From NCBI GenBank assembly GCA_044892525.1, contig CM097885.1, positions 31,994,001-32,058,000 on the forward strand: a stretch of DNA of 64,000 nt, in the 5' to 3' direction. The first letter of the stretch is position 1, and the number at the start of each line of letters is the position of its first letter. This DNA is from Schmidtea polychroa. Its lineage: Eukaryota. The notes below the pieces were generated by a model. That model saw nothing but the letters and a program-made list of their open reading frames with translations. It did no database searches and had not been told where the DNA came from. Made by a program: the position numbers and the translations under genes. This document shows, piece by piece, positions 59,258 to 64,000 of the stretch.

Positions 59258-59367
59258 AGTAGATGGATTGGGCACCGCTGGCACAGGGCACCGCTAGCAC
59301 AGTACCCCCCCTCCCCCCCCGTCGGTAAGATTTTCAAAAATATTCTAAGTCTAAAAGTACATTTTTT

Positions 59368-59982
59368 TTCAAGGTCAAATTTAAACAAAGACATATGACT
59401 CATCAAGGTCATTGAAACAAAGAACATGAGTCATCCTATGACTCATAAAAATTTTCAAGGTCATTTAAACAAAGACCATGACTCATCCGATGACTCATCA
59501 AGGTCATTTTCAAGGGCATATGACTCATAATATGACTCATCAAGGTCAAAAAAATTTTCTCAAGGTCATTTAAACAAAGACCATGACTCATCAAGGTCAT
59601 TTCAAGGTCGTATGACTCATAGTATGACTCATTTGACCTTGAAAAATTTTTTTCAAGGTCATGTGACTCATCCTATGACTCATCAAGGTCATTTTCAAGG
59701 TCATATGCCTCATCCTATGACTCATCAAGGGCATTTTCAAGGGCATATGACTCATAGTATGACTCATTTGACCTTGAAAAAATTTTTTCAAGGTCATATG
59801 ACTCATCCAATGACTCATCAAGGTCATTCTCAAGGTCATATGACTCATCCGATGACTCATCAAAATTTTCAAGGTCACCTGAGTCATCCTATGACTCATC
59901 AAGGTCATTTTCAAGGTCACGTGACTCATCCAAGGTCATTCCCAAGGTCATATGAGTCATCGCGATGACTCATCAAGGTCAT
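59368..59982. promoter_or_regulatory. Subterminal array of AP-1 (TGA[C/G]TCA) and CAAGGTCA nuclear-receptor-type motifs
   Basis: Manual count about 24 TGASTCA and about 20 CAAGGTCA (either strand) in ~615 bp, plus repeated TAAACAAAG. Confidence 0.7.
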
Positions 59983-60137
59983 ATTATTATTTTTAAAAAA
60001 TATTATTATTTTTATTATTATTTTTAAAAATATTATTATTTTATTTTTAATTTTTTCAAAGTTCCCGCCAACGAAAATTAATAATCGATAGCTCATTTTA
60101 AAGCTCAATCCAAGACCTTTCGAATGAGCCATATATC

Positions 60138-60305
<168 letters not shown>

Positions 60306-60430
60306 GTATTAATCTATATACACCGAGTCTATATACTCTGAGTCTATTCGACAAAATATTTTGTCCCCCTATGGGTAATGCTCACAAGGGTACTGGTCAC
60401 GCTCAACAAATCAACAAAACATACATTTAT

Positions 60431-60931
60431 TTAAACAATAAAATAATGTAAAATTAACAAAGGTAAACTAAATATTGATGCACTTCTATTCGCAGCATTA
60501 TTGTTAGAAATTGGTAACGTTGAATTGATTTTCAGATATTCTATTGATCCTTTGATTGTTTGAATTTCTCTTAATAATAATTCAATCTTTTTTAACAAAT
60601 AATCATGCTTCTTATCAATAATCTTCATATTCTTTTTATTTTCAGTAATAGAGTTATTGAAAACCTCAATATGATCAATCAATTTAATTTTTATATTTTG
60701 TATATATTCAAATGTTAGTTCATAACTGTTTTCTAAATTCTCCAATCTTTGAGATATTCTTTTTCCTGGATGCTTTGACCATTTTGGTTTATCGAGAATA
60801 TATAAAATATCCATCAACTTGGCTGTATTCGGACAAACACATATTGATTTATTAAAAGACTCCACCGTTATTGTTGTATTGTGTGAGCACACACTCGTTA
60901 TAATAATTAGCAATATGAATAGAGTTTTCAT
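60431..60931 (-). CDS. Putative surface glycoprotein: signal peptide, coiled coil, GPI-like C-terminal signal (166 aa)
   Basis: MKTLFILLIIITSVCS leader; N-X-S/T sequons NTT, NKS, NNS, NST, NRS; heptad-rich middle; small-residue stretch then hydrophobic tail IFSLPLLILHYFIV. Confidence 0.7.
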   Translation of the reverse strand: MKTLFILLIIITSVCSHNTTITVESFNKSICVCPNTAKLMDILYILDKPKWSKHPGKRISQRLENLENSYELTFEYIQNIKIKLIDHIEVFNNSITENKKNMKIIDKKHDYLLKKIELLLREIQTIKGSIEYLKINSTLPISNNNAANRSASIFSLPLLILHYFIV

Positions 60932-61036
60932 GGTGTATCAAATCAAAACCTTTCTTTTACATTTATAGTCTATCAACCAATCAAAATCATCCGGTATTAG
61001 TATAAATAAAACATCATATTTTAAATTATTGTAAAA

Positions 61037-61557
61037 ATGTCTCAATTTATGGAAAATCTTTTAAGAGAACTCGTCAACAGGAATATTATGGAAAGCCTAT
61101 GTTTCCTGGTCGATGGGACCGAAAAGATTATAGAAGGTAATCACATTGATTATGACGATGTGATCAATTCTGATTGTCTCGAAACCAAAAAATTCTATTT
61201 TAATAGAATTTTTAACTGTCTATGCGACGATCAGATGAAGTGGACCCGAATACTAGTAGGGTTCGCTTATATGAAAATAATAATCCAAAGAAGTCTATGG
61301 GACTCAGAGCACTATTATCAGTGGTCTCAAGAAGTAATACTTTTATAATTTATATTTTATTAATATTTATTTTCTAGATAATCAAGTCAAAGTTTCAACC
61401 ATGGATTGAAGCCAATGGCGGATGGGGAGTACTCAATCAACTCGCCAGAAATGCAAAAGAAATAGACGATCAGAAAAGAAAATTTAAAAACTATGTAAAA
61501 CTTGCAACAGGTGTTGCTATTTTGTATATTTTAACCAGATTTTTAAATAAAAATTAA
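61037..61557 (+). CDS. Bcl-2 family protein, two exons (61037-61333, 61378-61557; 158 aa)
   Basis: BH1-like IFNCLCDDQMKWTRILVGFAY; after a 44-nt GT-AG phase-0 intron, BH2 FQPWIEANGGWG and C-terminal anchor LATGVAILYILTRFLNKN. Confidence 0.85.
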
Positions 61558-61640
61558 TATAGTTATTTTTGTTTGATTTTTAAATAAATTTTTAAATAAC
61601 ATTTTAAATAAATTTACAAACACTAATTAACTAAGATTTA

Positions 61641-62030
61641 TTAATTAACACATTCGCAGTCGTCATCTCCACATTTCATTATATTTTCAACGACATGATC
61701 AATACAATCATTCGTAATATTATCTTTAGATTCATCTTTAGGTTCCTCTATAGGTTCCTCTATAGGTTCCTCTATAGGTTCATAGATTTCCTCTCGAGTT
61801 TCTTCCTCATCAATTTCTTGAGTTTCTTCCTCATCATCAAATCCTGTATCTTGACTCTCAACTAACCAGCCGATATTTAAGGCATTTGTAATAGATAATA
61901 TATCCTCCATTTTCACACCAGATATTTCTGCTAACTTTTCCAACAAAAAGTTGATTAAAAATTCTAAATAATAAATAATTCGGTAATTAATTAATTAATC
62001 ATGTTAACCTTTTTCTACAGTCATTTTCAT
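61641..62030 (-). CDS. Small acidic protein, two exons (62030-62009, 61963-61641; 114 aa)
   Basis: ATG 62030 and a 45-nt GT-AG intron give in-frame MKMTVEKEFLINFLLEKLAEISG...; EEPI tandem repeats and a Cys-rich acidic tail. Confidence 0.65.
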
Positions 62031-62158
62031 CACTTTAAAACTAAATTATAAGTTTGTTTATAGATTTTCTTTGTTAAATTTGCATGTCATTTGCATTTAT
62101 GTTGCAATTAATAAAGAGAAAAAAACAAATCTGACTAATACATTTATTAAATATAACA

Positions 62159-62569
62159 TTAAAATATTTGTGAAAGTCTAGCAGACATAATTTTCCAAAT
62201 AGGAGAATATACATCATTATTATCAACTTTATATCCCTGGATTGCAATTGTTATATACCAATTTTCATTTTCTTTGAAAGCGATTTCATCAAAGGAATCA
62301 TAAAATCTTGCATATTTATTGTTGAACCATGCATGTTGATTACACGATAGATTCGAATCTATCCGTTTAAAAACATCATCAATAGTTTTGACATCAATCA
62401 TTGAAAGCGTGCCGGATAAGAATTCAAATTTAGTTGGAATTAGCTTGACTGGTGCAACCAATTTCATATTGATTTCTTCTTTCAAAAAATACATTTTGTA
62501 GTTGTGGAACATTTGAACTGGTTGTACCATTTCTTTAGGTTTTTCGGTGCTTGAAATTTTCTTGGTCAT
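62159..62569 (-). CDS. Hypothetical viral-type protein (136 aa)
   Basis: Clean ATG ORF with upstream TATAAAAA, TGACTCA and CCAAT motifs; family not confidently recognised. Confidence 0.65.
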   Translation of the reverse strand: MTKKISSTEKPKEMVQPVQMFHNYKMYFLKEEINMKLVAPVKLIPTKFEFLSGTLSMIDVKTIDDVFKRIDSNLSCNQHAWFNNKYARFYDSFDEIAFKENENWYITIAIQGYKVDNNDVYSPIWKIMSARLSQIF

Positions 62570-62917
62570 CGTGAATAATGAATAAATTTAAATGTTACAG
62601 GGTTTTTATACCTTTGACTCATGCCTATCAACCAATCAGATTATAGCATGTCTTTGTTTAAATTGCATTCAAAATGCATTGATGTTGCATTGTCACATGT
62701 TCTATTTACAGATTTATTATTAATGTTTAAATTATTACATGTTTTGATATATGTACAGATTTATTATTAATATGTTTCATTATTATTAATGTTTTTACTA
62801 TTATTACTATTCATATTTCTATTACTATTACTATTACTATTATTATTATTATTATTTCAAATATAAAACACAATAAAACACAATAAAAAAGATAAAACAC
62901 AATAAAAAATACATTTA

Positions 62918-63382
62918 TTAATAACCCAAATCTACAATCTTGGAGTAGTGAAACCTTCTCAGAGTTTTCACTAACTCCCATTCGACATATCGCCGATATC
63001 GATCGGCGCAACATGAGCATCCGATGATGCACTGGTACTCTGGCTCCATTTGTTTGATGGTTCTGTTAATCTTTATATCCCACAGAAACTGGTGAAATAC
63101 ATCCATGATTCGAATTTGAGTCGCATAGAATATCAGATCTGGAATGATCTCAGGTTCGCGATCCTTGATAATTTCAATAATTTGAGGATAATAATATTTT
63201 ATCCTTTTTATCATAACTTCTAAATATTTCTCTAAAATAATAAATAGTAAATAATGTGAAAAAAAAATTTTAAATTTACCGGAATCGTCGATATCTTTCA
63301 TGAGGGTTGCAGAGCTTGGTAATTTGTACATAGTGTTGAAAAAATGAATTCTAAACAAAAACCGTTTGTTTAAATCAATCAA
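62918..63382 (-). CDS. Hypothetical protein (up to 154 aa; likely ATG start at MYKLP)
   Basis: Open ORF packed between neighbours; contains CIIGCSCC; no recognised family. Confidence 0.55.
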   Translation of the reverse strand: MIDLNKRFLFRIHFFNTMYKLPSSATLMKDIDDSGKFKIFFSHYLLFIILEKYLEVMIKRIKYYYPQIIEIIKDREPEIIPDLIFYATQIRIMDVFHQFLWDIKINRTIKQMEPEYQCIIGCSCCADRYRRYVEWELVKTLRRFHYSKIVDLGY

Positions 63383-63404
63383 TAACCAATTAGAAATTAA
63401 CCAA

Positions 63405-63842
63405 TTAGAAATCGACCAATGAAATTATCTCATTTCGAACATTGTCAACAAATTCTCTATACTCCAAATTTCTCAACCCCAACATGACAACCTTTCCACT
63501 AGCAAACACGTTGACACATATAGGGTTATATTTTAATAGTCTTAGTGCCGGAAACAATTCCGGTTCAAACATACAATCACATTTTTTCGACATGTTATAT
63601 AGATTGATACTATGTCCCATATCCATAGTAACGGTAATTGATTGGATTTTAATATTATTTATTCGATATTGTAATTTATTAATATCCAAAGGTTTCTTAC
63701 ATCCCATGATTCTGCATTTACCAGTCTTGAAAAATATTATCGGATATTTCCCACTTCTATCGATAATTTGCTGGGGTTTCCCTGGTGGGAACCTCATATT
63801 CGATACATCAAAATTTCCTCGATAATTTATATTTGCTAACAT
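63405..63842 (-). CDS. TATA-binding-protein-like protein (145 aa)
   Basis: Two TBP repeats: IIFFKTGKCRIMG and NIKIQSITVTMDMGHSINL...FEPELFPAL...VNVFASGKVVMLG (cf. TBP YEPELFPGL, IFVSGKVVLTG). First repeat shortened; no introns. Confidence 0.88.
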   Translation of the reverse strand: MLANINYRGNFDVSNMRFPPGKPQQIIDRSGKYPIIFFKTGKCRIMGCKKPLDINKLQYRINNIKIQSITVTMDMGHSINLYNMSKKCDCMFEPELFPALRLLKYNPICVNVFASGKVVMLGLRNLEYREFVDNVRNEIISLVDF

Positions 63843-63941
63843 TATTAAATCATTTATGAAAATTAGTCTTTATATACAAATTGAGCACGAGTTCATTAAA
63901 TCATCGAATATAAACAAATACACATTTATAAAATATTTGAA

Positions 63942-64000
63942 ATGGAATTAAGAAATGATGCTGTATACCAAATCGTTGGTCCGAGTGGTAGTGGAAAAAC
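63942..64000 (+). CDS. P-loop ATPase N-terminus, probably Polinton A32/FtsK-like packaging ATPase (truncated by window end)
   Basis: MELRNDAVYQIVGPSGSGK(T): Walker A within the first 20 residues, as in Polinton packaging ATPases. Confidence 0.7.
   Translation, partial: MELRNDAVYQIVGPSGSGK

Follow-up and report, generated by a model that had tools for sequence, protein, structure and literature searches.

Gene organization at the locus

The window analyzed here, a 64,000-nucleotide stretch of the Schmidtea polychroa genome (GCA_044892525.1, contig CM097885.1, positions 31,994,001 to 32,058,000 of the forward strand), contains the left 4.7 kb (59258..64000) of a Maverick/Polinton element, and the second gene from the left end of this element, located in its accessory arm on the plus strand, encodes a predicted Bcl-2-like protein in two exons. 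Exon 1 (61037..61333, 99 codons, ATG at 61037) carries the BH1-like motif KWTR and is followed by a 44-nucleotide (nt) intron (61334..61377, GTAATA...TTCTAG, with GT at 61334-61335 and AG at 61376-61377) and by exon 2 (61378..61557, 59 codons plus stop), which encodes the BH2 motif WIEANGGW, a linker, and a predicted tail anchor. An earlier reading made from the window's letters alone (hereafter the sequence-only reading) had described this arrangement, and each structural detail of it was recovered: the unspliced open reading frame (ORF; 61037..61348, 103 codons) includes BH1 only and ends at a stop located 15 nt beyond the GT at 61334, within the intron, and removal of the GT-AG intron adds WIEANGGW and the tail to give an open joined frame of 158 codons (99 + 59). 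In the spliced protein, KWTR, which stands in place of the canonical NWGR, occupies residues 68-71 and WIEANGGW residues 108-115, with the BH1 tryptophan and arginine and the BH2 pattern W..[ND]GGW in the right order. A hydrophobic stretch at residues 141-155 (mean Kyte-Doolittle value 1.81) has basic residues on either side and aligns with the tail of the Schmidtea mediterranea 'Bcl2-like protein' (P0002, UniRef C9WPR4), and this C-terminal stretch is probably a tail anchor, a feature of the Bcl-2 family.

Candidate transcription signals accompany the gene and its relatives. A CCAAT motif (60977..60981, plus strand) lies upstream, and CCAAT was seen in 6 of 8 upstream stretches of subfamily representatives; a TATAAATA box (61001..61008, plus strand) is found ~30 nt before the ATG, at an equal distance in all eight representatives. 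An AATAAA signal (61546..61551, plus strand) overlaps the last codons, and AATAAA was likewise present in all eight, overlapping the frame end in seven, with the first AATAAA of the eighth (L073) ~25 nt after the stop. At 61115 the window copy alone has G, which changes Arg27 to Gly; the other 29 copies sampled and all contigs compared have C.

Membership in the Bcl-2 family

The Pfam Bcl-2 profile (PF00452, gathering cut-off 31.4 bits) was scored against the window gene as two separate exon pieces. Exon 1 scored 17 bits (E = 0.0086) on profile positions 12-66; the match of exon 2, colinear with it, covered positions 86-100 with 11.9 bits (E = 0.34). When the whole genome was searched with the same profile (150 scored of 909 candidates), sister Maverick subfamilies, read through their in-frame introns, scored 32.1-34.5 bits and thus above the cut-off; these subfamilies are 62-69% identical to the window gene by tblastn and 68-77% identical over the spliced proteins. 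The same search returned host-type genes, namely a tandem array on C4 (68 bits) and single genes (58, 56.7, 53.8, and 46.7 bits), as well as an intron-less gene (152-aa open frame, at least 8 copies) at 33.5 bits and frames of the type found in Burro retroelements at ~29 bits. The profile check proposed with the sequence-only reading therefore came out divided, with colinear matches and passing sister subfamilies on one side and window pieces below the cut-off on the other.

Profile-profile comparison extended these matches. An hhalign comparison of nine spliced element proteins with P0002 and the nearest host gene of this genome (L039) gave a probability of 99.65% (E = 4.8e-25) for an alignment of 144 columns that takes in the tail, and the same nine proteins matched five other host Bcl-2 genes at 95.5% (E = 1.5e-8) across BH1-BH2. 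A profile made from element proteins only, effectively exon 1, retrieved 39 matches from the PDB at E values up to 1, every one a member of the Bcl-2 family. A second PDB profile match, to Bcl-xL (alignment A2, E = 1.5e-18), came from an alignment that contains host Bcl-2 rows and is not independent evidence. Searches for homologues of exon 1 in protein collections returned only the unspliced 103-aa ORF, in clusters whose members are nameless, and the public collections held only unspliced versions of 103-108 aa; a single-protein query against viral contigs found no relative, and the ESM Atlas gave no usable match.

Fold models (AlphaFold) were made for sister copies with the in-frame intron translated and X at the TAG, rather than for the spliced window protein. 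Model 1 (L044, 11 alignment rows) had a pLDDT of 58.5 and a pTM of 0.49; its top 50 Foldseek matches in the PDB all belonged to the Bcl-xL/Bcl-2 family (best E = 2.8e-3 with TM 0.49/0.54; TM range 0.49-0.58), and its top five matches among viral structures were viral Bcl-2 homologues at E values of 0.057 and above. Model 2 (L065, 87% identical to the window protein, 26 rows) had a pLDDT of 67.7 and a pTM of 0.47, its helix was prolonged through the intron-coded residues, and its Foldseek matches were to the Bcl-2 family only (E of 0.02 and above, TM ~0.3). In the structure-prediction check proposed earlier, the best matches were Bcl-2 family chains but the models were low-confidence models of sister copies, and the predicted folds point weakly in the right direction. 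It is the sequence-profile evidence that shows the predicted protein to be a member of the Bcl-2 family, as the sequence-only reading had claimed, through the 99.65% profile match to the host Bcl2-like protein and the sister subfamilies above the PF00452 cut-off. A chance ORF was rejected on the basis of the colinear Pfam matches and of a gene structure that recurs in diverged subfamilies.

Conservation of the intron and selection on the gene

The intron was compared among 11 loci including the window copy, the other subfamilies being 36-87% identical in protein. Introns at the same codon were present in all 11, each starting with GT and ending with TAG, with lengths ranging from 38 to 54 nt: 44 nt in the window copy and L057; 45 nt in L065, L044, and L066; 51 nt in L042; 48 nt in L045; 54 nt in L049; 43 nt in L070; 52 nt in L071; and 38 nt in L073. 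Five of the 11 introns are out of frame, while both exons remain open. Among the in-frame introns, the TAG at the acceptor is the sole stop within the match in L044, L042, L045, and L049; the intron of L065 is closed by the acceptor TAG and that of L066 by earlier stops as well. Because all 11 introns contain stops or shift the frame, exon 2 and the tail it encodes would be unreachable without splicing. The cDNA-type host protein P0002 aligns gap-free over the exon junction (YFEWSVE/LILTKIYPW vs YYQWSQE/IIKSKFQPW). Judged by this comparison across subfamilies, the predicted 44-nt intron is real.

Ratios of nonsynonymous to synonymous substitution (dN/dS, Nei-Gojobori) between three subfamilies were 0.07, 0.17, and 0.13, with pS of 0.61-0.69 and pN of 0.115-0.188; synonymous sites are near saturation, so these ratios are rough, and pN is still far below pS. 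Differences in exon 2 between the window copy and L044 were distributed 8/3/19 over the three codon positions of the spliced frame. The substitution pattern shows the predicted gene to be under purifying selection. A further 20 loci were in a mixed state: both exons were found by script in six; exon 2 was open, as judged by eye, in L054, L059, and L064; L055, L058, L060, and L061 had a stop or a lost motif in exon 2; exon 2 was gone in L056, L062, L063, and L072; and L067, L068, and L069 were members of the intron-less family. Therefore, older subfamilies appear to decay while young ones are intact.

Junction evidence from sequencing runs

Four sequencing runs were compared as contigs; the RNA label of three of them (X1-X3) is a guess, and none is on record as RNA. 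X1-X3 have small contig totals compatible with transcriptomes, and contig ends in X2 are A/T-tailed. In X1, a contig starting at 61378 is preceded by the 10 nt GTCTCAAGAA, identical to window positions 61324-61333 at the end of exon 1, and this word occurs once in window positions 60400-62000. The contig weakly shows the 61333/61378 junction, and with it splicing in RNA. In X5, which is probably genomic by size, the joint was not seen, in contigs that drop rare variants. A check of junction reads at these positions had been suggested by the sequence-only reading; one X1 contig does join the two exons, while X1 also covers the intron and its RNA label is guessed. Contigs of X2 end in A or T runs at 60633, 60760, 61037, and 61355, which may reflect polyadenylated transcripts from both strands in this region or else internal priming; the end at 61037 lies after an AATAAA at 61006.

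Copy number and activity

The assembly comprises 781 Mb in four very large contigs with ~25% G+C. Exon 1 was found at 95-100% protein identity in all 150 places scored (the best 150 of 2338 first-look candidates), and its frame was open, without a stop, in 149 of these. The full 521-nt gene matched at ~100% in all 40 places scored (the best 40 of 1442 candidates). Each of 30 sampled copies retained GT..AG and an open spliced frame, and 25 of them were identical to one another. The near-identical intact copies, together with perfect target duplications (see below), suggest that transposition was recent and is perhaps ongoing.

Host relatives and origin of the element gene

The nearest relative outside any element, L039 (C1:268.54 Mb), shows 28% identity by tblastn, is single-copy, and has no element genes within 10 kb. 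Its S. mediterranea counterpart P0002 is 89% identical to the host gene of this genome and 26% identical to the spliced window protein over 146 residues. L039 has a 3-kb intron directly after GGW, and in the host genes L035, L039, L052, and L053 a GT follows GGW directly, at the canonical intron position of the family. The element gene does not have this intron; its exon continues past GGW, and its own intron lies 16 codons upstream. Because the gain of an intron at exactly the canonical place of the family is unlikely, we infer that the gene passed from the host into the element and that the mini-intron is a later or separate acquisition.

The claim of the sequence-only reading that the gene is element-borne and not an ortholog of a resident host gene was upheld: it is carried by a Maverick with inverted repeats and target duplications, and the nearest resident gene, outside elements, is only 26-28% identical. 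The idea of a host gene that merely sits inside a repeat was rejected. The phylogeny proposed as a check was less informative beyond this distance to the nearest host gene, as a maximum-likelihood tree of 20 Bcl-2-like proteins of this genome did not resolve the deep forks; with these forks open, the tree makes no choice between one and two captures for the intron-bearing and intron-less versions and leaves the Burro domain unplaced.

The intron-less gene (L040/L041 and L067-L069) encodes 144 aa with CWSK at BH1, is 48% identical to L039, and lies in a second Maverick family, whose gene order is rearranged (context C1:15396000-15415999). This family is diverged from the window element (polymerase 59%, integrase 70%, and TATA-binding protein [TBP] 54% identical), and its Bcl-2-like gene may have been captured separately or may have lost the intron. 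At C4:89.95-90.83 Mb, seven near-identical host-type Bcl-2 genes (L028-L034; 68 bits, NWGR) lie within 0.9 Mb, and this group is either a tandem/segmental array or an assembly duplication.

The BH1 variant

The BH1 glycine is important in Bcl-2 and Bcl-xL, and the canonical NWGR is present in the host genes L028 and L035. In the window protein the glycine is absent, with threonine in its place. Subfamilies MavA-C have KWTR, MavD has KWSR, MavE has TWSR, and the intron-less family has CWSK; the nearest host gene L039 and P0002 both have RWSR. The glycine does not define the family, for P0002 carries PF00452 in precomputed annotation. Because the nearest host gene and P0002 also lack it, its loss appears to have been inherited: as read from the sequences, it characterizes the clade that unites host and element genes and is not an adaptation of the element. 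RWSR in L039 and in its S. mediterranea counterpart thus rules out that the change originated in the element, and the earlier proposal of an altered binding specificity is not supported in the form given.

The carrier element

The element is a Maverick/Polinton of adintovirus type. It spans 18,738 bp (59258..77995, in coordinates continued past the end of the window), and two other copies align with it at 97.5-99.4% identity from 59258 to ~14 kb past the window end. Its termini are AGTAGATGG...CCATCTACT, and 6-bp target duplications were found in all three copies (AAGGAT, GTTGTA, and CATTAA). The left terminal inverted repeat (59258..60857) is ~1.5 kb long, contains tandem repeats, and matches the reverse complement of 76471..77995. 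Within it, the tandem repeats at 59400..60350 read as repeated MSHRMSH-type peptides on either strand; 60124..60306 is a long run of ATT/ATA type. A 166-aa ORF on the minus strand (60431..60931) lies inside the inverted repeat; it has a hydrophobic N- and C-terminus and only weak coiled-coil-type Pfam matches, and a shorter copy of it is present in the right repeat on the plus strand (76514..76897, continued coordinates).

To the right of the Bcl-2-like gene, three accessory ORFs of 101, 136, and 154 aa (61641..63382, minus strand) belong to no known family; homologues of the 136-aa and 154-aa ORFs adjoin the Bcl-2-like gene in another Maverick family as well. They are followed by a TBP-like gene (63405..63842, minus strand; PF00352, E = 1.6e-15, 57.1 bits against a cut-off of 22.9) and by an A32/FtsK-type packaging ATPase (63942..64568, plus strand, with the window part reaching to 64000; PF04665, 30.3 bits, cut-off 22.8). 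The TBP homologue of another Maverick family is 54% identical. In every subfamily, the TATAAATA box stands in front of the Bcl-2-like gene. Copy B (C1:5.05 Mb) is without ~520 bp that are present in the window copy and in copy C (64160..64682, continued coordinates), and the missing part takes in the last portion of the ATPase gene and the beginning of the ORF that follows.

Beyond the window, the element encodes an rve integrase (PF00665, E = 1.1e-5, 26 bits, under the cut-off of 32.6) with a hint of a chromodomain, which also matches the NCBIfam IS481 transposase core (E = 1.4e-12), and an adenain protease (PF00770, 26.9 bits, cut-off 21.3). Between these two genes, where jelly-roll major and minor capsid proteins were looked for, ORFs of 351, 121, 265, and 147 aa have no Pfam or NCBIfam match and are kept at 52-80% identity in another Maverick family. 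An ORF of 1130 aa (72506..75898, continued coordinates) gave no family-identifying match in Pfam, NCBIfam, or PDB sequences; by eye, it contains ADFES, NLRGYD, YLKLD, DINNLYG, KLYNNSLYG, and GDTDS in this order, which we take to be the Exo I-III and Pol A-C motifs of a family B polymerase. The ORF is extended by ~330 aa at its N-terminus and contains an insertion that weakly matches Endonuclease VII (PF02945, E = 0.0011).

Candidate function and alternative explanations

We favor, at a rough probability of 0.6, the interpretation that the tail-anchored Bcl-2 protein acts in a pro-survival manner and holds off mitochondrial apoptosis in the cell that hosts the element. The protein would be inserted in the outer mitochondrial or endoplasmic reticulum membrane and would bind the BH3 segments of host death effectors, and this binding would delay the apoptosis otherwise triggered by replication by the element polymerase and cutting by the integrase. 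In planarians, as far as is known, only insertions in stem cells are heritable, and survival of stem cells would be the selected trait. Membrane targeting, BH3 binding, and the pro-survival direction are predicted from the precedent of viral Bcl-2 homologues.

Several results weigh against this interpretation. The BH1 glycine is replaced by threonine in the window protein, both of its exon pieces score below the PF00452 cut-off (17 and 11.9 vs 31.4 bits), and a phmmer search of 1.84 billion representatives with exon 1 returned one relative (104 aa, 63%) and no named Bcl-2 protein. The best PDB match of the element-only profile is the pro-death protein BAK (E = 0.0017). Both fold models are of low confidence and include translated intron, and no Foldseek match reaches an E value of 0.001. 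Furthermore, the RNA support for splicing consists of one contig from one run, with 10 letters on one side and a guessed RNA label, and X1 contigs cover the intron too, so that unspliced RNA, antisense RNA, or DNA is also present.

The BAK match, together with the multi-BH, tail-anchored form shared with Bak, would suit a Bax/Bak-like pro-death or membrane-permeabilizing protein used late to break the cell and release particles, and since the element has capsid-morphogenesis genes (ATPase and adenain), release from the cell is conceivable. We nevertheless consider this rather unlikely: the nearest relative is a host 'Bcl2-like protein' and no Bak-type gene, the BH3-aligned region varies between subfamilies (VDG/VDR in MavA vs INR/VNR in MavB and MavC), the viral homologues among the structure matches are annotated as inhibitors of cell death, and hundreds of heritable copies require multiplication in surviving cells. 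A Bcl-2 fold repurposed for innate immune damping, autophagy, or calcium handling, roles known from several poxviral Bcl-2-fold proteins, is a possible though doubtful alternative. It would accommodate the loss of the canonical BH1 glycine and a sequence so far from canonical members that the global search returned one relative, but the BH1 tryptophan and arginine, a canonical BH2, and the tail anchor are all kept, and 144 columns are colinear with a host Bcl2-like protein that has the same glycine replacement. To our knowledge, the repurposed poxviral proteins are without these motifs and without the anchor.

Whether the gene matters to the element at all, or is expressed as a two-exon product, is likewise addressed by the comparative data. 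Stops in exon 2 of older-subfamily copies (L055, L058, L060, and L061) might be expected of a passenger gene, captured from the host and of no use to the element; this possibility, already disfavored, is made very unlikely by dN/dS of 0.07-0.17 with synonymous sites near saturation, by the retention of the gene in Maverick families with polymerases only 59% identical, by the intactness of all 30 sampled young copies, and by the conserved promoter and poly(A) signals. Least credible is the absence of splicing, in which case the 103-aa, BH1-only protein would be the sole product and the downstream BH2 frame a relic: the X1 coverage of the intron and the exclusively unspliced 103-108-aa ORFs of public protein collections are compatible with it, but exon 2 is constrained by codon position in the spliced frame, intron length varies out of frame with both exons open, and the junction contig is present in X1.

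Relation to known systems and implications

Homologues of Bcl2 and IAP have been observed in adintoviruses, according to the text and a supplementary map label of Starrett et al. (2021, PMC8502044). Bcl2 genes in adintoviruses are therefore already published, and the present gene adds a flatworm, spliced, multi-subfamily case. The adintovirus Bcl2 is, as here, an accessory gene beside polymerase B, integrase, adenain, packaging ATPase, and inverted repeats; in contrast, the gene described here resides in a flatworm, is split by a tiny intron, probably derives from a flatworm Bcl2-like lineage, and, with more than a thousand first-look matches, is represented in several diverged subfamilies. 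The UniProt entry 'Bcl2 [Branchiostoma lancelet adintovirus]' was a weak structural match of model 1 (rank 37, E = 2.6, TM 0.39). P0002 and L039 resemble the element gene over BH1, BH2, the linker, and the tail anchor, with the BH1 glycine replaced in both (RWSR and KWTR), whereas the element gene, 26-28% identical to the two, is multicopy and has the 44-nt intron and no post-GGW intron.

A BCL2-like motif in the polyprotein of the planarian Burro giant Gypsy retroelements is mentioned by Arkhipova and Yushenova (2019, PMC6431247, citing Grohme et al. 2018), and there, too, a virus-like mobile element in a genome of this kind carries a Bcl-2-like module. Open frames of ~3050 aa in many copies (L046 at C1:6414985-6424263 and ~80 other places) contain a Bcl-2-like stretch (~29 bits) followed by a membrane segment, which fits the Burro motif. 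Unlike the window gene, the Burro version is a domain in a giant polyprotein, has no BH1 tryptophan (GVNRDK), and is not a separate spliced gene; similarity between the two is confined to BH2 (35% over 48 aa). The Bcl-2 homologues of herpesviruses, iridoviruses, and African swine fever virus are small, tail-anchored, and encoded by DNA viruses, and they were the top matches in the viral library; these matches are weak (E of 0.057 and above), the viruses are not integrating transposons, and their homologues have been tested functionally, whereas function here is predicted from sequence. No publication on a Bcl-2 gene of planarian Mavericks turned up in our literature searches, and a 2026 preprint reports the abundance of Mavericks in Dugesia and nothing further. 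The present analysis contributes the junction contig, the range of intron lengths, the estimates of selection, a comparison of gene structure with the host gene, the intron-less version in a second Maverick family, and the observation that the BH1 change is inherited.

For annotation, the spliced gene is of a kind that ORF-based methods overlook, and public protein collections contain only its truncated 103-aa form; furthermore, thousands of element loci can distort counts of 'host' Bcl-2 genes. A broader scenario, which we regard as tentative and on balance unlikely, is that Mavericks and Burro retroelements each took up a Bcl-2 module, the Maverick one coming from the host, acquiring its own mini-intron, and diversifying into at least six subfamilies under purifying selection with active copies. 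If this were true, a block of mitochondrial apoptosis in stem cells would be a general requirement for heritable transposition in planarians, and element-encoded Bcl-2 proteins would contribute measurably to the control of planarian cell death and turnover.

Because stem cells, apoptosis, and regeneration are intensively studied in planarians and RNA interference is routine, the function of the gene is directly testable. Large DNA viruses classically employ Bcl-2 homologues, and a selected, spliced, and intact Bcl-2 gene in hundreds of young Mavericks lends support to the idea that these elements act like viruses and must deal with the host cell's death response.

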